A DNA stretch of 64,000 nt from Escherichia coli (GTDB lineage: Bacteria; Pseudomonadota; Gammaproteobacteria; Enterobacterales; Enterobacteriaceae). The notes below the pieces were generated by a model. That model searched no databases and was not told the DNA's origin. It was given only the letters and a program-made list of their open reading frames with translations. The position numbers were made by a program, and so were the translations under genes. Positions within the stretch are counted from its first letter, which is position 1, and each line of letters begins with the position of its first letter. The stretch lies in NCBI RefSeq assembly GCF_003334335.1, contig NZ_QOWQ01000005.1; one strand, written 5' to 3'. Below are positions 8,434 through 32,433 of the stretch, piece after piece.

Positions 8434-11611
<3,178 letters not shown>

Positions 11612-12772: not shown

Positions 12773-12788
12773 CTGTATTTATATACAG
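12773..12788. promoter_or_regulatory. LexA (SOS) box CTGTATTTATATACAG upstream of dinD
   Basis: Perfect CTGT-N8-ACAG palindrome with AT-rich spacer, read directly from the sequence. Confidence 0.7.
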
Positions 12789-19067: not shown

Positions 19068-19238
<171 letters not shown>

Positions 19239-19254
19239 TTCTCGCTTTGATGTA

Positions 19255-19288
19255 ACAAAAAACCTCGCTCCGGCGGGGTTTTTTGTTA
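19255..19288 (+). terminator. Rho-independent terminator of rpmBG
   Basis: A-tract, GC-rich hairpin (cctcgctccggcgggg) and T-run. Confidence 0.6.
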
Positions 19289-19335
19289 TCTGCTTGCCCC
19301 CATATTGACTGCATCTGTTCATTCCTGGAGATGCT

Positions 19336-20183: not shown

Positions 20184-21948
<1,765 letters not shown>

Positions 21949-22354
21949 AATAAATAGCTGACTTATGGATGTGCTGGGGATTCTATGTATTTAGCACCGG
22001 GTTTGCCATTACTTTTCCTTTTTTTGACTTAATTAGCCTCTGTTTGAGCTGATCTGCCGCTAGATCTTCATTTTTTTTGTATTTTTATGCGATTCATTGA
22101 ATTTCAGCCAGGATTGCAGCTTTACATCGACAATATCTGGATTCTCGAGTATGCAAAATTTTATCTCTATGATTTTTATAATTAAAACATATTTTGTGTA
22201 TAAAAATCATTCGGGTCGGATTGCTGCGAAAGAAATGATACACTAGCGCGTCAAAGTAAGTGCGTTATCAGTATTCGGGTAGCTGTTGAGCCTGGGGCGG
22301 TAGCGTGCTTTTTTCTGCTTAACTTAACCAGACAATCACACAAAAGAGTCGCTA
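21949..22354. promoter_or_regulatory. Divergent waaA / waaQ control region (AT-rich, long waaQ leader)
   Basis: 406-bp AT-rich intergenic region between divergent operons; contains the ops element listed separately. Confidence 0.55.
22296..22307 (+). promoter_or_regulatory. ops element GGCGGTAGCGTG (RfaH recruitment site, JUMPstart core)
   Basis: Exact GGCGGTAG octamer followed by CGTG, about 50 nt upstream of the waaQ start on the coding strand. Confidence 0.75.
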
Positions 22355-23425
22355 GTGGAAAAGCCATTTCGAAAAATCCTGGTCATAAAGATGCGATATC
22401 ACGGAGATATGTTATTAACTACTCCTGTAATCAGTACACTCAAGCAGAATTATCCCGACGCAAAAATCGATATGCTGCTTTACCAGGATACAATTCCGAT
22501 TTTATCTGAAAACCCAGAAATTAATGCACTCTATGGTATAAGCAATAAAGGTACGGGAACATTCGATAAAATTAAAAATGCACTTTCACTGATAAAAACT
22601 CTGCGTGCGAATAATTACGACCTGGTCATTAATCTTACGGATCAGTGGATGGTGGCCCTGCTGGTACGTTGTTTACCTGCTCGTATGAAAATATCGCAGC
22701 TTTATGGTCATCGGCAGCATGGCATTTGGAAAAAAAGCTTTACACACTTAGCGCCTATACACGGTACACATATTGTTGAGCGTAATTTGTCGGTCCTTGA
22801 GCCATTAGGTATTACCGATTTTTATACTGAAACAACCATGAGTTACGCCGAGGATTGCTGGAAGAAAATGCGCCAGGAATTAGATGCACTGGGCGTGAAA
22901 GATCATTATGTCGTCATCCAGCCGACAGCCAGACAGATATTTAAGTGCTGGGACAACGATAAATTTTCTATGGTTATCGATGCGTTGCAACATCGTGGTT
23001 ATCAGGTTGTGCTGACTTGTGGCCCTTCGGCAGATGATCTCGCTTGCGTAGATGAAATTGCACGAGGCTGCCAAACAAAACCTATTACCGGCCTTGCCGG
23101 TAAAACACGTTTTCCTGAACTGGGCGCATTAATTGATCATGCAGTGCTCTTTATTGGTGTGGATTCTGCGCCGGGGCATATTGCAGCGGCTGTGAAGACG
23201 CCAGTTATTAGCCTGTTTGGGGCCACTGATCATGTATTCTGGCGTCCATGGACCGAGAATATTATTCAGTTCTGGGCGGGGAATTATCAAAAAATGCCTA
23301 CCCGGCACGAACTTGACCGCAACAAAAAATATCTTTCTGTTATTCCAGCGGAAGATGTCATTGCCGCTACGGAAAAGCTGTTGCCAGAAGATGCACCTTC
23401 AGCTGACAGGAATGCGCAATTATGA
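22355..23425 (+). CDS. waaQ: LPS heptosyltransferase III (GT9)
   Basis: GTG start with AAAGAG RBS; N-terminal KILVIKMRYHGDML aligns with the WaaC/WaaF N-terminal motifs, so the start must lie upstream of Met13. Confidence 0.8.
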   Translation: MEKPFRKILVIKMRYHGDMLLTTPVISTLKQNYPDAKIDMLLYQDTIPILSENPEINALYGISNKGTGTFDKIKNALSLIKTLRANNYDLVINLTDQWMVALLVRCLPARMKISQLYGHRQHGIWKKSFTHLAPIHGTHIVERNLSVLEPLGITDFYTETTMSYAEDCWKKMRQELDALGVKDHYVVIQPTARQIFKCWDNDKFSMVIDALQHRGYQVVLTCGPSADDLACVDEIARGCQTKPITGLAGKTRFPELGALIDHAVLFIGVDSAPGHIAAAVKTPVISLFGATDHVFWRPWTENIIQFWAGNYQKMPTRHELDRNKKYLSVIPAEDVIAATEKLLPEDAPSADRNAQL

Positions 23426-24546
23426 TCGTGGCATTTTGCTTATATAAATATTTTCCATTTGGTGGGCTACAGCGTGACTTTATGCGTATTGCCTCAACAG
23501 TTGCCGCACGGGGCCACCATGTTCGGGTATATACACAGTCGTGGGAAGGCGATTGCCCGGAAGCATTTGAGCTTATTCGCGTACCGGTTAAATCCCATAC
23601 TAACCATGGACGTAATGCAGAATATTATGCCTGGGTTCAAAACCATCTGAAGGCACATCCCGCTGATCGCGTTGTTGGCTTTAATAAGATGCCTAGGCTG
23701 GATGTTTATTTTGCCGCCGATGTCTGTTATGCCGAGAAAGTGGCGCAAGAAAAGGGATTTTTCTATCGTTTAACATCGCGCTATCGCCATTATGCTGCAT
23801 TCGAGCGAGCGACTTTCGAACATGGTAAATCGACGAAACTTATGATGTTGACCGATAAGCAAATCGCCGATTTTCAGAAGCATTACCAAACTGAACCAGA
23901 ACGTTTTCAAATTCTTCCCCCTGGTATCTATCCTGACAGAAAATACAACGCGCAAATCCCAAACAGTCGTGAAATTTATCGCCAGAAAAATGGCATCACT
24001 GAACAACAAAACTTATTGCTGCAGGTTGGTTCAGATTTTGGTCGTAAAGGTGTGGATCGCTCAATTGAAGCTTTGGCATCGTTACCAGAATCGTTACGCC
24101 ATAATACGTTGTTGTTTGTTGTTGGCCAGGATAAACCGCGTAAATTTGAAGTGCTGGCAGAAAAACTCGGTGTGCGTAGTAAAGTGCATTTCTTTTCCGG
24201 GCGGAATGATGTGTCTGAATTAATGGCAGCCGCTGATTTATTAATGCATCCCGCTTATCAGGAGGCTGCAGGTATTGTTCTCCTTGAGGCAATTGCCGCG
24301 GGATTACCTGTGTTGACGACTGCGGTATGCGGATACGCACACTATATCACAGATGCTAATTGTGGAACGGTCATCGCTGAACCTTTCTCCCAGGAACAAT
24401 TAAATGACGTTTTACGTAAAGCGTTAACTCAATCTCCATTGCGCATGGCCTGGGCGGAGAATGCTCGGTATTACGCCGATACTCAGGATTTATACAGCCT
24501 GCCGGAGAAAGCGGCAGATATCATTACAGGTGGTTTAGATGGTTGA
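23422..24546 (+). CDS. waaG: LPS core glucosyltransferase I (GT4)
   Basis: 374-aa ORF; ATGA start/stop overlap with waaQ. Confidence 0.9.
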
Positions 24547-25336
24547 ATTAGAAGAGCCACTTGCCACACTCTGGCGTGGTAAAGATGCCTTTGCAGAAGT
24601 TAAAAAACTGAATGGCGAGGTCTTCCGTGAACTGGAGACGCGTCGCACATTACGCTTTGAACTGGCCGGCAAAAGTTATTTCCTCAAATGGCACAAAGGG
24701 ACGACCCTAAAGGAGATTATAAAAAATCTGCTCTCATTGCGGATGCCCGTTTTAGGTGCAGACAGAGAGTGGCACGCTATTCATCGACTGCATGATGTCG
24801 GTGTTGATACGATGCACGGAATAGGATTTGGTGAAAAAGGGTTAAATCCATTAACTCGCACATCATTTATTATTACCGAAGATCTCACTCCCACAATTAG
24901 CCTTGAAGATTATTGTGCAGATTGGGCGGTCAACCCGCCTGATGTACATATTAAGCGTATGCTGATCGCGCGTGTGGCAACCATGGTGCGCAAAATGCAT
25001 GCAGCAGGGATTAATCACCGTGATTGTTATATCTGCCACTTTTTACTCCATTTGCCATTTACTGGCCGGGAAGATGAATTAAAAATTTCGGTTATCGATC
25101 TGCACCGGGCACAGATACGTGCAAAAGTACCACGTCGTTGGCGGGATAAAGATTTGATTGGTTTATATTTCTCATCAATGAATATTGGTCTGACGCAGAG
25201 AGATATCTGGCGATTTATGAAGGTTTATTTTGGGATGCCTTTACGCGATATTTATAGACTTGAGATTGATTTACTTAAAAAGGCAAGGATTAAAGCAGGA
25301 AAAATAGAAGCAAGAACAATAAGAAAAAACTTGTAA
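24539..25336 (+). CDS. waaP: LPS core heptose(I) kinase
   Basis: 265-aa ORF with kinase-like catalytic motifs ([11 protein letters not shown]); 8-nt overlap with waaG. Confidence 0.9.
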
Positions 25337-25368
25337 ATAGTATTTTATTACAAAAAGGGATTCTAAAA

Positions 25369-26349
25369 TTGTTGAAATATAGAAACTTCGTTGCTAAGAA
25401 GAAAAATTTATACCAAAACGAAGTGTCGTATGTTAAAAATTTACATATTGCACTATGCTTTGACCGTGAATTCATAATGCCAGCGGGTGTTGCATTATAT
25501 TCAATTATATCCAACAATAGACATATTAACCTTCATTTTCACCTTCTTATATCAGGCATAGAAGAAAAGGAGTGTTCAGCTTTTTACGAACTAGAAGGTC
25601 CTAATACATCAATATCTGTATATTATATAACTGATAAATTTGACATTAATCCGGATACATTAGTTCTTGGTATTCCTTTATCAACATGTTTACGTTTTTT
25701 AATCCCAGAAGTTATTGATGATAAAATAAATAAGATACTTTATCTTGACTGTGATGTCATATGTAATGGTCCTTTAGATGAACTGGTTGATTATAATTTA
25801 AATGCTGATATTGCATGTGTAATTCCAGATTCGCCAGAAATGCAAGAACGTGTAAAAAAATTAGACTATGGCATTGAGTTTATTAATTATTTTAATGCCG
25901 GGGTTATGTTTATTAATACCAGCGAATGGAAAAAAAATAATATAACACAAAAAGCGTTAGAAATGATCAACAGTGGAAAAGTATATAGGTATGCAGATCA
26001 GGATGTGCTCAATATTTTACTTAATGGACGAGTGCATTACCTTGATAAGAAGTACAATAATAAGACAACATTGTCAGTACGATGTGATGAAGAACAAAAA
26101 AACTTGCCCAACACAATTATAATGCATTATGTTACCCAGAATAAACCATGGTACAAAATATTTAGAGCACAAAATTTTGATCATTATTTTTCAAATTCTC
26201 CTTGGAAGAACCATAAAAGAAATCTAGCTCCATCATCAAGTGAGATTAGGTTAAAGTCTAAAGTTTTTTGGCTAGAAGGAAAATATTGTAAAGCCATTTC
26301 TTATTATTATAAGTATTTACTTGTTAAATTATTTGGCTTAAAGATTTAG
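25369..26349 (+). CDS. LPS core glycosyltransferase, GT8-like, at the waaS position
   Basis: 326-aa ORF from TTG start; YLDCDV (DxD), FNAGVMFIN and DQDVLN motifs shared with the two downstream GT8 paralogs; very low GC. Confidence 0.6.
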   Translation: MLKYRNFVAKKKNLYQNEVSYVKNLHIALCFDREFIMPAGVALYSIISNNRHINLHFHLLISGIEEKECSAFYELEGPNTSISVYYITDKFDINPDTLVLGIPLSTCLRFLIPEVIDDKINKILYLDCDVICNGPLDELVDYNLNADIACVIPDSPEMQERVKKLDYGIEFINYFNAGVMFINTSEWKKNNITQKALEMINSGKVYRYADQDVLNILLNGRVHYLDKKYNNKTTLSVRCDEEQKNLPNTIIMHYVTQNKPWYKIFRAQNFDHYFSNSPWKNHKRNLAPSSSEIRLKSKVFWLEGKYCKAISYYYKYLLVKLFGLKI

Positions 26350-26362
26350 CTGGAATGAAATT

Positions 26363-27442
26363 ATGAAAATAGCCTTTATTGGCGAAGCTGTTTCTGGATT
26401 TGGCGGCATGGAAACAGTCATTCGTGATGTTATTACTACCTTCAGGCAACAACATATCCAAAGTGAAATTTTTTTCTTTTGTCGTAATGACAAAATGGAT
26501 AAGGGATGGCTGGAAGGTATTAAGTACTCGTGTTCATTTTCCAATATTCGCTTAGGTTTTTTGCGTCGCGCGAAACATATTCATGCTTTAAGCAAATGGC
26601 TTCATGATTATCAGCCAGATGTTGTTATTTGTATTGACGTGATCTCGTGTTTGTATGCGGCCAAAGCTCGTAAAAAATCGGGGATTGATGTACCTGTATT
26701 TTCATGGCCGCATTTTTCTTTAGATCATAAAAAACATGCCGAATATATCACCTGTGCCGACTATCATTTAGCCATCAGCTCTGGTATTAAACAGCAAATG
26801 ATTAGCCGGGGTGTACCAGAATCGACAATAAACGTTATTTTTAATCCCGTTGAGGCGAAAAATTCAGTCATTCCTGCACCCGGGGAAGGCGAAACGGCAA
26901 CATTCATTTATGTTGGGCGCATGAAATTTGAAGGCCAAAAGCGCGTAAAAGATCTGCTTGATGGCTTATCACAAGTGCAAGGTGACTGGAAACTTCATGT
27001 ATTGGGAGATGGCTCCGATTTCGAAAAATGCCAGGCTTATGGTAGAGGATTAAATATTGATGATCGAATTGTCTGGTATGGTTGGCAACAACATCCCTGG
27101 AAATTAGTTCAGCAAGATATTAAAAAAGTGAGTGCATTATTACTCACGTCATCTTTTGAAGGTTTCCCAATGACTCTACTTGAAGCCTTGTCGTGGGGGA
27201 TCCCTTGTATCAGTGCAGATTGTGTCTCCGGGCCTGTTGATATCATTCAGCCTGATGTTAATGGTCATTTATATCAACCGGGGGATATGACCGGTTTTGT
27301 TGCTCTTCTCAATAAATACATAGCCGGTGAAATTCACATCGCACATGAAAAAATTCCGGCGTCGATCGATAAATTTTATCAACCGAAATATTACGACAGA
27401 TTGCAAAAGATAATTATTTCTGTTATTTCCCGGAGGAAATAA
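26363..27442 (+). CDS. waaB: LPS core alpha-1,6-galactosyltransferase (GT4)
   Basis: 359-aa ORF MKIAFIGEAVSGFGGMETV..., GT4 C-terminal EGFPMTLLEA motif. Confidence 0.8.
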   Translation: MKIAFIGEAVSGFGGMETVIRDVITTFRQQHIQSEIFFFCRNDKMDKGWLEGIKYSCSFSNIRLGFLRRAKHIHALSKWLHDYQPDVVICIDVISCLYAAKARKKSGIDVPVFSWPHFSLDHKKHAEYITCADYHLAISSGIKQQMISRGVPESTINVIFNPVEAKNSVIPAPGEGETATFIYVGRMKFEGQKRVKDLLDGLSQVQGDWKLHVLGDGSDFEKCQAYGRGLNIDDRIVWYGWQQHPWKLVQQDIKKVSALLLTSSFEGFPMTLLEALSWGIPCISADCVSGPVDIIQPDVNGHLYQPGDMTGFVALLNKYIAGEIHIAHEKIPASIDKFYQPKYYDRLQKIIISVISRRK

Positions 27443-28461
27443 TGCAGCAGGTTTTTTTCCAGGAGACTGAGTTTCTCAATTCGGTTATTGATTATAATCA
27501 TAAAATAGAAGCAGAAAATCTTTGTCTGGATATTGCTTATGGGACTGACAAAAATTTTCTTTTTGGATGCGGAATATCGATTGCTTCAATATTAAAATAT
27601 AATGAAGGAAATCAATTATGCTTTCATATTTTTACTGATTATTTCGGTGATGACGATCGCAAATATTTTGATGCCCTGGCCAGGCAATATAAAACAAGAA
27701 TTAAGATATATTTAATTAATGGTGATCGACTCCGTTCATTACCCTGCACCAAGAACTGGACTCATGCTATTTATTTTCGTTTTGTTATCGCCGATTACTT
27801 TTTTAATAAAGCACCCAAAGTTCTTTATCTGGATGCAGATATTATTTGTCAGGGAACTATAGAACCACTTATCAATTACACGTTTTCTGAACATACAGTC
27901 GCAATGGTTGTTACAGAAGGACAAAAAGACTGGTGGGCAAAACGTGCTCATTCGTTAGGTGTTGCTGGGATTGCTAATGGTTACTTTAACTCCGGTTTTT
28001 TACTGATTAATACTAATCAATGGACGAATGAGCGGGTTTCTGCACGGGCCATTGCAATGTTAAGTGATCCAGAGATAGTCAAAAAAATAACACATCCTGA
28101 TCAGGATGTATTAAATATGTTATTGGCAGACAAACTTGTTTATGCTGATATTAAATATAACACTCAGTTTAGTTTAAATTATCAACTAAAAGAAAGTTTT
28201 AAAAACCCAGTAACTAACGATACAGTTTTTATTCATTATATTGGTCCAACTAAACCCTGGCATGACTGGGCCTGGGATTATCCAATATCACAAGCTTTTA
28301 TGGCGGCAAAAAATGCTTCACCATGGAAGGATACTGCGTTATTGAAACCGGTTAATAGTAATCAATTAAGATACAGTGCTAAACATATGTTGAAAAAAAA
28401 GCAATATATCAAAGGATTTGGCAACTATCTTTTGTATTTTATAAAAAAGCTAAAGCATTAA
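27442..28461 (+). CDS. waaI: LPS core alpha-1,3-glycosyltransferase (GT8)
   Basis: 339-aa ORF; GT8 motifs YLDADIIC, FNSGFLLIN, DQDVLNMLL; 1-nt overlap with the waaB stop. Confidence 0.75.
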   Translation: MQQVFFQETEFLNSVIDYNHKIEAENLCLDIAYGTDKNFLFGCGISIASILKYNEGNQLCFHIFTDYFGDDDRKYFDALARQYKTRIKIYLINGDRLRSLPCTKNWTHAIYFRFVIADYFFNKAPKVLYLDADIICQGTIEPLINYTFSEHTVAMVVTEGQKDWWAKRAHSLGVAGIANGYFNSGFLLINTNQWTNERVSARAIAMLSDPEIVKKITHPDQDVLNMLLADKLVYADIKYNTQFSLNYQLKESFKNPVTNDTVFIHYIGPTKPWHDWAWDYPISQAFMAAKNASPWKDTALLKPVNSNQLRYSAKHMLKKKQYIKGFGNYLLYFIKKLKH

Positions 28462-28624
28462 TACTGATAATCTATACTCTAAATAATTCGAGTTGCAGGA
28501 CAAAAAGCCAGTGGCGTTTTGAGGAACGCTTGCGTTGGCCCTGAAATGCCGAGTAACTCGCCGATGCAGCACATGCAACTTGAAGTATAACGAGTATATA
28601 AAGTAATGATATAAGGATAGCCTT

Positions 28625-29641
28625 GTGAACTCATTTCCTGCCATAGAGATAGATAAAGTTAAAGCCTGGGATTTTAGGCTTATTGATGAAAATACTGCTG
28701 AAAGTTTAAATGTTGCCTATGGTGTCGATTCCAATTATCTTGATGGTGTAGGTGTTTCCATTACTTCAATTGTCATTAATAATCGACATGTTAATCTTGA
28801 TTTTTATATTATTGCTGATGTTTATAACGACGATTTCTTTCAAAAAGTTGAGAAACTTGCTGAGCAATACCAATTAAGAATCACACTTTATAGAATAAAT
28901 ACTGATAATCTTCAGTGCCTGCCTTGTACACAAGTCTGGTCAAGAGCAATGTACTTCCGTTTATTTGCTTTTCAATTATTGGGAGTAACACTTAATCGTT
29001 TGCTTTATCTTGATGCCGATGTAGTTTGTAAGGGAAATATTAGTCAACTATTGCATTTAGAGTTTAATGGAGCGGTGGCTGCAGTAGTCAGGGATGTAGA
29101 CCCAATGCAGGAAAAGGCGGTAGTCAGATTATCTGATCCTGAACTTCGGGGGCAGTATTTTAATTCTGGTGTCGTTTACTTAGACCTAAAAAAATGGACA
29201 GAAGCAAAACTAACCGAAAAAGCACTGTCTATTCTTATGAGTAAAGATAGTATTTATAAGTATCCTGACCAGGACGTTATGAATGTCCTACTAAAAGGGA
29301 TGACAATATTCCTGCCACGTGAGTTCAATACTATATATACAATAAAAAGTGAGTTAAAAGATAAAACGCATCAAAAATATAAAGAGTTGATAAAAGAGGA
29401 TACTCTTCTTATTCATTATACTGGGGCCACCAAGCCGTGGCACAAATGGGCAATTTATCCATCGGTAAAATACTATAAAATAGCTTTAGAAAGATCCCCC
29501 TGGAAAGATGACTCACCACGAGATGCAAAATCAATTATTGAATTCAAAAAAAGATATAAACATCTGTTAGTGCAACATCATTATATCTCAGGACTCATTG
29601 CAGGAGTGTGTTATCTTTGCCGAAAATATTACCGTAAATAA
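28625..29641 (+). CDS. waaJ: LPS core alpha-1,2-glycosyltransferase (GT8)
   Basis: 338-aa ORF from GTG start with AAGGA RBS; GT8 motifs YLDADVVC, FNSGVVYLD, DQDVMNVLL. Confidence 0.75.
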   Translation: MNSFPAIEIDKVKAWDFRLIDENTAESLNVAYGVDSNYLDGVGVSITSIVINNRHVNLDFYIIADVYNDDFFQKVEKLAEQYQLRITLYRINTDNLQCLPCTQVWSRAMYFRLFAFQLLGVTLNRLLYLDADVVCKGNISQLLHLEFNGAVAAVVRDVDPMQEKAVVRLSDPELRGQYFNSGVVYLDLKKWTEAKLTEKALSILMSKDSIYKYPDQDVMNVLLKGMTIFLPREFNTIYTIKSELKDKTHQKYKELIKEDTLLIHYTGATKPWHKWAIYPSVKYYKIALERSPWKDDSPRDAKSIIEFKKRYKHLLVQHHYISGLIAGVCYLCRKYYRK

Positions 29642-29658
29642 CATTTAACTGGTTTAAC

Positions 29659-30357
29659 ATGATTCAGAAGAATAAAATCAAAGATTTAGTTGTTTTTACC
29701 GATGAAAATAACTCAAAGTATCTCAATGTATTAAATGACTTTCTTTCTTATGATATTAATATCATCAAAGTTTTTCGTTCTATAGATGATACAAAAGTCA
29801 TGCTTATTGATACCGATTACGGTAAATTGATACTTAAAGTTTTTTCGCCTAAAGTAAAACGCAACGAACGTTTCTTTAAATCTCTTTTAAAGGGAGATTA
29901 TTATGAACGCCTTTTTGAGCATACTCAAAAAGTGCGTAACGAGGGGCTACATTCTCTCAATGATTTTTATTTGTTGGCAGAACGGAAAACATTACGTTTT
30001 GTCCATACTTATATCATGCTTATCGAATATATCGATGGCGTAGAGTTGTGTGATATCCCCGATATTGATGAAACTTTAAAAAATAAAATTCAACAATCAA
30101 TTCGTTCATTACACGAACACGGTATGGTATCTGGTGATCCTCACCGCGGTAATTTTATTATTGAAAATGGTGAAGTACGCATTATTGATCTTTCAGGAAA
30201 ACGGGCATCTGCACAACGTAAAGCGAAAGATCGTATTGATTTAGAGCGACATTATGGTATTAAGAATGAGGTTAAAGATCTCGGTTATTATCTTTTAGTT
30301 TATCGTAAAAAAATACGTAATCTTATGCGGCGTTTGAAAGGGAAGCCAGCACGATAA
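29659..30357 (+). CDS. waaY: LPS core heptose(II) kinase
   Basis: 232-aa ORF; small kinase-like protein at the position WaaY occupies in this cluster. Confidence 0.75.
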   Translation: MIQKNKIKDLVVFTDENNSKYLNVLNDFLSYDINIIKVFRSIDDTKVMLIDTDYGKLILKVFSPKVKRNERFFKSLLKGDYYERLFEHTQKVRNEGLHSLNDFYLLAERKTLRFVHTYIMLIEYIDGVELCDIPDIDETLKNKIQQSIRSLHEHGMVSGDPHRGNFIIENGEVRIIDLSGKRASAQRKAKDRIDLERHYGIKNEVKDLGYYLLVYRKKIRNLMRRLKGKPAR

Positions 30358-30428
30358 AGTAAAAGTCTTACATTTAAACGTCTTCGTCAGGACATTTCTA
30401 TGCGGAGTTCTTATTTCACAGGTTTATC

Positions 30429-31238
30429 ATGAAGAATATTAGATACATTGACAAAAAAGATGTTGAAAACCTGATAGAAAGTAAAACGTCTGATGATGTT
30501 ATTATTTTTCTTTCCGGCCCCGCATCGCAAAAAACACCATTGTCAGTGCTGCAGACAAGGGATGTTATTGCTGTCAATGGTTCTGCACAATATCTATTAA
30601 GTCATAATATTATTCCCTATATTTATGTACTTACCGATGTTCGCTTTTTACATCAACGGCGTGATGATTTTTATAAATTTAGCCAGAGAAGTCGTTATAC
30701 CATCGTAAATGTTGACGTTTATGAACATGCTTCTGAAGAAGATAAGCGGTACATCCTTCAAAACTGCCTGGTACTACGTTCATTTTACCGCAGAGAAAAA
30801 GGTGGATTGATCAAGAAGATCAAGTTTAATATTTTGAGCCGAATTCATAAAGAGCTCCTGATCTCTGTACCTTTTTCTAAAAAAGGTCGTCTGGTTGGCT
30901 TTTGCAAGGATATTAACCTCGGTTATTGTTCATGCCATACCGTTGCTTTTGCTGCAATCCAAATAGCCTATTCGCTGAAGTATGCTCGTATTATCTGTTC
31001 AGGCCTTGATTTAACGGGTAGCTGTTCGCGTTTCTATGATGAAGATAAGAATCCTATGCCCTCAGAGTTGACTCGGGATTTATTCAAAATTTTACCATTT
31101 TTCCGTTTTATGCGTGAAAATATAGAAGATATCAATATTTATAATTTATCCGACGATACTGCAATTCAATATGATATTATTCCCTATATGAAAATATCCG
31201 AAATTGAAGAGCCGTGTGTTTATGAAAAAATAAGCTAA
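30429..31238 (+). CDS. waaZ: LPS core biosynthesis protein WaaZ (KdoIII-associated)
   Basis: 269-aa ORF at the WaaZ position in the WaaY-WaaZ-WaaK order; assignment by position and size. Confidence 0.65.
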   Translation: MKNIRYIDKKDVENLIESKTSDDVIIFLSGPASQKTPLSVLQTRDVIAVNGSAQYLLSHNIIPYIYVLTDVRFLHQRRDDFYKFSQRSRYTIVNVDVYEHASEEDKRYILQNCLVLRSFYRREKGGLIKKIKFNILSRIHKELLISVPFSKKGRLVGFCKDINLGYCSCHTVAFAAIQIAYSLKYARIICSGLDLTGSCSRFYDEDKNPMPSELTRDLFKILPFFRFMRENIEDINIYNLSDDTAIQYDIIPYMKISEIEEPCVYEKIS

Positions 31239-31290
31239 TATTTTATATGTGTTTATTACGTGTTATAAATTATATTGGAGTTGGCTAATA

Positions 31291-32433
31291 ATGATTAAAA
31301 AAATAATATTTACCGTCACACCAATATTTTCTATACCGCCAAAAGGAGCTGCAGCGGTTGAAACATGGATTTATCAGGTCGCAAAAAGACTTTCGATTCC
31401 AGTAACTATCGCCTGTATTCGAAACGAAGGTTACCCAACCTACACAAAAGTAAATGATCACTGTGATATTCACTACATTGGTTTTAGTCGAGTCTATAAA
31501 CGACTTTTCCAAAAGTGGACTCGACTTGATCCTGTGCCATATTCTCAGCGTATTTTAAATACCCAACCTAAAAACACTGATCCGAAAGACTCTGTTATTG
31601 TTATCCACAATAGCATGAAGCTGTATAAACAGATTCGTAGCAGAAGCCCTCACGCGCAGCTAGTTATGCATCTTCATAATGCTTTCGAGCCAGGTGAGTT
31701 AGACAAAAATGCAAAGATAATTGTTCCTAGCCAGTTTCTTTTCGATTTCTATTCGGAAAAAATGCCTGATGCAAATATTGCTATTGTGCCTAATGGTTTT
31801 TGTTCTGAATCGTATGAACAAAATAATACTGAAGATTTGAGGCAGAAACTGAACATTGATGCAAATGATACCGTGTTATTATTTGCAGGAAGGATATCAC
31901 CAGATAAAGGTTGCCTGATGCTTATGGAGGCTTTTAATCAGCTGAATAAGATACAAGATAACCTCAAACTGGTGATTGTCGGAGATCCTTTTGCCAGTAA
32001 AAAAGGCGAAAAAGCTGAATATCAGAAAAAAGTTCTGGATGCAGCGAAAGCTATTGGAGCGCAATGCATTATGGCGGGTGGACAGCCTCCAGAGCAGATG
32101 CATAACTATTACCGTTTAGCAGATTTAGTTGTTGTTCCTTCTCAGGTAGAAGAAGCTTTTTGTATGGTAGCTGTTGAAGCGATGGCGGCAGGTAAACCAG
32201 TGCTTGCCAGTCAAAAAGGTGGAATTAGTGAGTTTGTTCTGGAAGGAATTACAGGCTATCACCTTGCAGAGCCTATGACATCTGAAAGTATTCTCGCGGA
32301 TATTAAGCGCGTTTTGGCGGATGCTGACAGAGCTCAAATTGCTAAAAATGCCCGAAATTTTGTTTTCTCAAAATATAGCTGGGAACATGTTACTCAGCGT
32401 TTTGAAGCACAAATACAAGACTGGTTTGGTTAA
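31291..32433 (+). CDS. waaK: LPS core GlcNAc transferase-like glycosyltransferase (GT4), Salmonella/R2-type
   Basis: ORF 31249..32433 trimmed to ATG 31291 (GGAG RBS at 31277-31280), 380 aa; GT4 fold; size fits WaaK rather than the K-12 WaaU length I recall. Confidence 0.65.
   Translation: MIKKIIFTVTPIFSIPPKGAAAVETWIYQVAKRLSIPVTIACIRNEGYPTYTKVNDHCDIHYIGFSRVYKRLFQKWTRLDPVPYSQRILNTQPKNTDPKDSVIVIHNSMKLYKQIRSRSPHAQLVMHLHNAFEPGELDKNAKIIVPSQFLFDFYSEKMPDANIAIVPNGFCSESYEQNNTEDLRQKLNIDANDTVLLFAGRISPDKGCLMLMEAFNQLNKIQDNLKLVIVGDPFASKKGEKAEYQKKVLDAAKAIGAQCIMAGGQPPEQMHNYYRLADLVVVPSQVEEAFCMVAVEAMAAGKPVLASQKGGISEFVLEGITGYHLAEPMTSESILADIKRVLADADRAQIAKNARNFVFSKYSWEHVTQRFEAQIQDWFG

Follow-up and report, generated by a model that had tools for sequence, protein, structure and literature searches.

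RfaH is recognised both as a virulence target and as a drug target. The ops element through which it is recruited is a consensus pause, with RNA polymerase halting at U11: on the non-template strand, ops folds into a small hairpin from which T6 is flipped out, recruitment of RfaH requires the bases G4, G5, A7 and G8, and T11–G12 drive the pause (PMC5995543). In the E. coli strain CFT073, the RfaH ChIP-seq signal extends over the rfa unit 3′ of the one ops in its leader, RNA polymerase occupancy in the ΔrfaH strain drops towards the end of the rfa operon, and the RfaH-dependent travelling ratio is ≤0.1–0.34 for wzx, kps and rfa, in agreement with earlier work in K-12; in the same three units the distance from ops to the start is 40–67 nt (PMC9765446). 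Protein-occupancy data (EPOD) for K-12 place the waa operons within an H-NS-dependent silenced domain.

The primary paper on the small RNA RirA is reportedly that of Klein et al. 2016 (J Biol Chem). The K-12 MG1655 genome annotates rirA (b4760), a 73-nt ncRNA, between waaQ and waaA, and the ends of RirA as used here are those of the RefSeq annotation and of reviews. RirA is located in the waaQ 5′ UTR, shares its start site with waaQ and includes both JUMPstart and ops (PMC5736990, PMC6358824, PMC8745692); it binds RfaH, and ops is required (PMC5736990, PMC6358824). Its overexpression mimics ΔrfaH, as stated in reviews from the discovering laboratory (PMC6358824, PMC5736990, PMC8745692).

Here we analyse the region between waaA and waaQ in a 64-kb stretch of E. 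coli DNA (hereafter, the window). We are highly confident that this region comprises the promoter and the ~104-nt leader of an R2-like LPS outer-core operon (waaQ…waaK) with a canonical JUMPstart/ops element. Orthologous to the waaQ leader of K-12, the leader belongs to the JUMPstart/ops class as a standard member, and both the feature and RirA have been described already; beyond the K-12 and CFT073 literature, the window shows only that the R2-type allele retains the intact module. The elements of the leader, its conservation and its homology to K-12 are demonstrated directly by our analysis.

Results and discussion

Organisation of the waa locus

The waaA–waaQ spacer spans 406 bp (21949–22354) with a GC content of 37.4%, as compared to 48.8% for the whole window, which bears out the preliminary description of the DNA as containing a 406-bp AT-rich divergent region. 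Its divergent neighbour is the Kdo transferase gene waaA (20671–21948, − strand), as judged by the open reading frame and by the RefSeq annotation transferred from strain M217, 33.5 kb of which aligns to the window at 99.95%. On the other side lies waaQ (rfaQ; 22355–23425, + strand), which, as judged by the open reading frame and RefSeq annotation, has a conserved GTG start and encodes 356 aa. It heads a series of ten LPS-core genes (22355–32433, + strand; ~10.1 kb, ~38% GC) in the order waaQ-G-P-GT8-B-O-J-Y-Z-waaK-like, the last gene encoding a GlcNAc transferase; by annotation transfer, the cluster reads coaD-waaA, then waaQ-G-P-(GT8)-B-O-J-Y-Z-(GlcNAc transferase), then waaL-C-F-D. AT-rich and headed by ops, this series has the make-up of a JUMPstart-class operon, and annotation transfer and composition suggest that it would form one RfaH-dependent unit. 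With its K-12-like order and waaK-like last gene, the cluster is one that we take to be of the R2-like core type. The 1.5 kb around the site are 100% identical in many E. coli chromosomes.

The lowest-GC part of the operon (25200–26400, 29–31%) covers the fourth gene, which encodes a GT8-family glycosyltransferase and occupies the position of waaS in K-12. In M217 an element of the ISKox3 family is inserted between dinD and yicC (window 12777–12784), and the window lacks it; the two alignment pieces overlap by 8 bp, which looks like a target-site duplication. In strain MLI104K2 there is an insertion in the waaA–waaQ spacer itself (equivalent of window 22108–22117, ~135 bp upstream of the waaQ start site) that the window lacks: an IS1-like end is followed by long homopolymer runs, and the stretch is annotated as ‘hypothetical protein’. 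We have set this ‘hypothetical protein’ aside, as the homopolymer runs indicate that it is probably either an assembly artefact or an insertion sequence within DNA that was poorly assembled.

The ops element is embedded in a full-length JUMPstart match

An exact 12-nt ops element, GGCGGTAGCGTG, is located at 22296–22307 (+ strand), precisely where the preliminary description had placed it, and is the sole exact copy in the window. All 12 of its 12 bases are kept, including the RfaH-contacting G4, G5, T6, A7 and G8 and the pause-inducing T11–G12, with U11 at position 22306. The element lies on the coding (non-template) strand, as befits an RfaH recruitment and pause element, 45 nt 3′ of what would be the start site if the K-12 annotation applies here. 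From the end of ops it is 47 nt to the waaQ GTG (22355), close to the ~50 nt proposed earlier, and 83 nt to the ATG (22391) of the K-12 annotation.

The exact 12-mer was found in 0 of 100 dinucleotide-preserving shuffles, and with one mismatch allowed there was a match in 22 of 100; because of this latter frequency, the 12-mer by itself is only moderately informative and falls short of strong evidence. What decides the matter is the context, namely the match to the Rfam covariance model of JUMPstart (RF01707), which runs from 22269 to 22307 (+ strand), covers model positions 1–38 of 38 and scores 53.1 bits (E = 2.9e-10) against a gathering threshold of 35 bits. No other Rfam family reaches its threshold anywhere in the window. 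The JUMPstart hairpin (22276–22280 with 22290–22294, + strand) is 100% paired in 17 leaders and contains one covarying pair (AU/GU/GC/UA). All of the features by which membership of the JUMPstart/ops class is defined at the sequence level are thus present in the window.

That the ops match is a chance 12-mer without function is a reading to which we give practically no credence. It could draw on the 8-nt core GGCGGTAG, which has seven copies in the window, and 8-mers that frequent are common, 2,171 distinct ones occurring at least seven times; we have for that reason also dropped the apparent enrichment of the core (7 copies versus 1.3 expected from shuffles). The exact ops is, however, absent from the 100 shuffles and embedded in a 53-bit JUMPstart match, it is invariant and in the same position before waaQ across E. 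coli core types and genera, and there is an experimental literature on ops (PMC5995543, PMC9765446). The conservation and the covariance-model score already refute a chance origin. Five of the other six copies of GGCGGTAG entirely lack the 3′ CGTG, and the sixth (11399–11410) matches ops at 10 of 12 positions. One copy without the CGTG pause part, at 29116–29123 (+ strand), is on the sense strand of rfaJ, within the waa operon; published ChIP data indicate that ops-like sites within coding regions are ignored by RfaH (PMC9765446).

Sub-threshold Rfam matches at 19181–19322 (+ strand; istR, Leu_leader, rimP, RNAI and RsmY) were rejected as look-alikes of the rpmG terminator. This intrinsic terminator, AAAAAACCTCGCTCCGGCGGGGTTTTTT, is clearest at 19259–19286 (+ strand).

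The waaQ promoter and its leader

The original mapping of the promoter is said to be that of Clementz (1992). Reading the window sequence, we find an extended −10 element of the waaQ/rirA promoter, TGATACACT (TG-A-TACACT; 22236–22244, + strand), that is near-invariant in its placement and ends 7 nt before the equivalent of the RNA 5′ end annotated in K-12. Because rirA maps at 22251 and shares its start site with waaQ, transcription would start at about 22251, yielding a leader of ~104 nt (22251–22354, + strand); the K-12 annotation, the reviews and the conserved −10 element all point to this start. A run of six T residues (22309–22314, + strand) follows directly 3′ of ops, and AAAAGAG, a weak Shine–Dalgarno-like motif with conservation of ~0.9 (22342–22348, + strand), is located 6 nt before the GTG.

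The preliminary description had spoken of a long leader of 406 bp. This is where it needs to be corrected: 406 bp is the length of the spacer, most of which is non-transcribed, the transcribed leader is ~104 nt, and the remaining ~300 bp are promoter and regulatory DNA shared with waaA. Our consensus scan of the spacer returned no + strand promoter and no terminator, a result that is uninformative, the real waaQ promoter being an extended −10 with a poor −35. The scan gave two σ70-like sites versus 1.6 expected, which is weak taken alone. A candidate promoter facing waaA (ATGGCA-18-TAGAAT; 21980–22009, − strand) lies within 21949–22030, is the only σ70-like match on the − strand and sits in the most conserved block of the spacer (21971–21990, 0.98–0.99 identity).

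Conservation among E. coli alleles and across genera

The spacers of 5,426 complete E. coli genomes form three sharply separated classes: ~481 genomes are essentially identical to the window, ~469 are at ~89% (K-12 type) and ~4,461 are at ~79%, the representatives of this last class being R1 and R3 clusters. The classes appear to track the LPS core type, which would therefore put an allele boundary inside the spacer. In an alignment of four alleles (R1, R2, R3 and K-12), divergence is concentrated in the middle of the spacer, whereas the block from ~22200 to the U-run after ops is nearly invariant, as compared to ~79% for the flanking spacer.

The K-12 leader is the nearest of the described systems. 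The locus is orthologous, with the same divergent waaA; the stretch equivalent to rirA is identical at 72 of 73 positions, and ops, the U-run, the Shine–Dalgarno-like motif and the GTG are identical to those of the window. The K-12 JUMPstart differs from that of the window in one hairpin base (A→G at 22277), with the pair kept as G-U, and the differences in the spacer, which is 89% identical, are concentrated at 22100–22190, upstream of the promoter. The K-12 operon ends in waaU and that of the window in the waaK-like GlcNAc transferase gene, and K-12 annotates waaQ from an ATG located 36 nt downstream of the window’s GTG.

Outside E. coli, a scan for the JUMPstart/ops signature with one genome per species gave at least 120 loci, and retaining those followed by a WaaQ homologue (tblastn) left at least 16 leaders from at least 9 genera; among the matches listed, these are Escherichia, Citrobacter, Kosakonia, Cedecea, Shimwellia, Pluralibacter, Silvania, Intestinirhabdus and Pectobacterium. 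The complete module – extended −10, JUMPstart, ops and a GTG ~40–65 nt downstream – precedes waaQ homologues in at least 16 species representatives. Among the matches listed, TGnTACACT or a near variant is found at the same distance from ops in the leaders of nearly all genera, and the waaA start lies 321–352 nt upstream of ops in 11 of 16 leaders (347 nt in the window). Four contigs, labelled Erysipelotrichia MAG, Arthrobacter, Hymenobacter and Myxococcales MAG, likewise carried exact JUMPstart/ops signatures, which one would not expect outside γ-proteobacteria; the four are probably contaminating enterobacterial contigs.

Aligning 14 sequences from several genera resolves the spacer into separate conserved islands at 21949–22030, 22071–22100, 22161–22180 and 22201–22354, of which the first is waaA-proximal and the last contains the waaQ promoter (22201–22250), followed by the leader and then by AAAAGAG and the GTG. 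We therefore reject, as very improbable, a long waaQ leader that starts at a promoter adjoining waaA and takes up all 406 bp of the spacer. The length of the spacer and the one conserved island at 22071–22100 are what could be cited for it; against it stand the K-12 annotation and the reviews, according to which waaQ and rirA share a start that corresponds to 22251, the conserved extended −10 at the right distance upstream of this start in many genera, the poor conservation of the spacer middle (22040–22160, 0.34–0.50) and the lack of an upstream + strand promoter-like site in the consensus scan. The island at 22071–22100 (TTTTTTTTGTATTTTTATGCGATTCATTGA; 0.76–0.84 identity over the 14 sequences, amid the diverged spacer middle) could be a regulator site or part of the waaA promoter.

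Predicted RfaH dependence of the operon

The leader should, by homology, behave in this strain as in K-12 and CFT073 with respect to its start site, RfaH dependence and RNA species. All 5,426 complete E. coli genomes contain rfaH, and in M217 and 4/2-1, whose waaA–waaQ region is 100% identical to the window over 1.5 kb, rfaH is 100% identical to that of K-12. In our proposed mechanism, transcription would start near 22251 from the extended −10 promoter, and after ~56 nt RNA polymerase would pause at ops U11 (22306) with ops exposed on the non-template strand. RfaH would then bind both the ops DNA hairpin and the polymerase and refold, exclude the action of NusG and Rho, suppress pausing and recruit the ribosome to the weak ribosome-binding site and GTG start 47 nt downstream, after which transcription would traverse 10 kb of AT-rich, H-NS-bound DNA. 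That ribosome loading in such operons is RfaH-dependent is a published view (PMC5995543), with which the weak Shine–Dalgarno-like motif and the GTG start agree. RfaH-dependent antitermination of the low-GC waa operon, which the preliminary description had predicted, has been published for the near-identical K-12 and CFT073 alleles (PMC9765446) and may be expected for this allele as well. The ops element would explain the expression of a 10-kb AT-rich, H-NS-silenced LPS-core operon.

The leaders of the rfb/wzx (O-antigen), kps (capsule), hly (haemolysin) and tra units resemble that of the window in having the same 39-nt JUMPstart with its hairpin and the 12-nt ops in a 5′ leader, as well as a single ops per transcription unit ahead of an AT-rich, H-NS-bound operon. 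The ops-to-start distance of 47 nt is short, as in wzx and kps, in contrast to ~600 nt in hly (PMC9765446). Unlike most other JUMPstart loci, waaQ leaders as a rule have a U-run right after ops as well as a 5′ segment that is complementary to ops RNA.

RirA and the 3′ ends of the leader RNA

The stretch at 22251–22323 (+ strand) is the homologue of K-12 RirA (b4760), identical at 72 of 73 positions (A→G at 22277) and at the syntenic position in the waaQ 5′ UTR, between waaA and waaQ; ops corresponds to nt 46–57 of the 73. The earlier suggestion that the leader can encode a 5′-UTR-derived RNA is in line with this. The same leader would give rise to a short ops-containing RNA (RirA) that, when overexpressed, would bind and titrate RfaH.

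Curated Term-seq tables for K-12 total RNA (Adams et al. 2021, PMC7815308), with positions mapped via their sequence column, contain a waaQ leader 3′ end at K-12 position 3808184 with 62,669 reads and a Rho score of 1.04 (not a Rho region), as well as an intrinsic-terminator score of 6.28, and a second one, in another condition, at 3808183 with 116,952 reads. These abundant ends fall on ops G10/U11, that is, leader nt 55/56 or window 22305–22306 (+ strand), and the curated tables have no 3′ end in the U-run or at the annotated nt 73 of RirA. The preliminary description had called for mapping of any stable leader fragment and had named an ops outside the transcribed leader as an observation that would count against it: public Term-seq data thus supply the former, and K-12 RNA 3′ ends that map inside ops speak against the latter. 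In the leader of rfb (rfbB), K-12’s other RfaH target, a 3′ end likewise falls on ops G10 (2113139), with 27,479 reads and a terminator score of 2.83; in both leaders the ends are strong and Rho-independent. Since the rfb leader shows this end and yet has no U-run, we conclude that the abundant leader RNA ends at the ops pause and that this is a general property of ops. The main text of Adams et al. does not mention waaQ or RfaH, nor does it discuss 3′ ends at ops; that in both RfaH targets of K-12 the leader fragments have their 3′ ends at ops G10/U11, and not at the annotated RirA end, is a modest new point.

What these ends mean can be read in more than one way. The short leader-derived RNA may be a by-product of the strong ops pause, a nascent or released species of ~56 nt without a physiological role in trans, with the RirA phenotypes arising from overexpression. 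We regard this as possible, though the less probable reading. It accords with the location of the waaQ and rfb leader 3′ ends alike at ops G10/U11, with the lack of an end at 73 nt, and with the use of overexpression to obtain the RirA phenotypes that the reviews quote (PMC5736990, PMC6358824, PMC8745692); it is at odds with the mucoidy caused by a Tn5 insertion in rirA, although such an insertion also disrupts the waaQ leader in cis, and with the 62,669–116,952 reads, a number that is high for total RNA and suggests a stable species. A further, unlikely reading invokes an RfaH-sensitive attenuator. Minimum-free-energy folds predict a long hypothetical hairpin (22258–22310, + strand) in which leader nt 8–22 (22258–22272) pair with nt 47–60 (22297–22310; ops RNA plus CUU), enclosing the JUMPstart hairpin and followed at once by U6; with the U-run at 22309–22314, this could constitute an intrinsic terminator. 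Polymerase leaving ops without RfaH would terminate there and free a RirA-type RNA, RfaH-modified polymerase would read through, and the device would add to ops-based recruitment rather than replace it. In its likeness to intrinsic terminators and 5′-UTR attenuators, the leader has an A-rich tract, a long hairpin and U6 in a 5′ UTR, and a Rho-independent 3′ end nearby; it differs in that the hairpin is long (53 nt), G-U-rich and lacks statistical support, so that we speak of resemblance only.

The predicted hairpin has a free energy of −21.8 kcal/mol, with U6 directly after it and an A-rich tract before it, but the fold is not significant as compared to shuffles (z = −1.64, 12/200). In an alignment of 17 leaders the outer stem is 86% paired, as compared to 30–51% in slid controls, and seven pairs change on one side yet stay paired; stem and U-run come and go together, in that 12 or more of the 14 pairs are present where there is a T-run (13 leaders), as compared to 7–11 of 14 in the four leaders that lack one. 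Among the matches listed, the T-run follows ops in 13 of 16 waaQ leaders (81%) versus 21 of 110 other JUMPstart loci (19%). These counts are biased in favour of the stem, as the structure was derived from the window sequence, the ops arm is fixed by the search pattern and the species are related; moreover, one pair is broken in 10 of the 17 leaders, and RNAalifold on the same 17 recovers no outer stem, its sole structures being the JUMPstart hairpin and a tiny hairpin inside ops. The terminator score of 6.28 for the K-12 leader 3′ end (scores of 3 or more being suggestive; PMC7815308) also favours an attenuator. An intrinsic terminator, however, is a GC-rich hairpin plus a U-tract with 3′ ends there, and the K-12 ends at ops G10/U11 are located upstream of the U-tract, inside the predicted stem; the rfb leader has the same ops-position end with no U-run, and the consensus terminator scan was negative. 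We would offer it only as a long shot that the lineage-conserved ‘anti-ops’ 5′ segment and the U-run make up an RfaH-sensitive checkpoint, with the freed ops RNA feeding back on RfaH and with the RirA species set by the ops pause or structure and not by a 73-nt end. The conserved, waaQ-specific combination of the ops-complementary segment with the U-run is, as an observation, a second modest addition to what has been described.

The waaQ start codon

The start of waaQ is annotated differently in different sources: K-12 b3632 (344 aa) uses the ATG equivalent to 22391, and RefSeq/PGAP uses the GTG at 22355 (356 aa). Alignments by tblastn from other genera start at residue 1 of the GTG form, the GTG is kept across genera, and several of the allele differences within 22355–22390 are synonymous in that frame; for these reasons, the K-12 annotation of waaQ is probably 12 codons short. 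That cross-genus data favour the GTG start over the shorter K-12 annotation is the last of the modest new points of this analysis.
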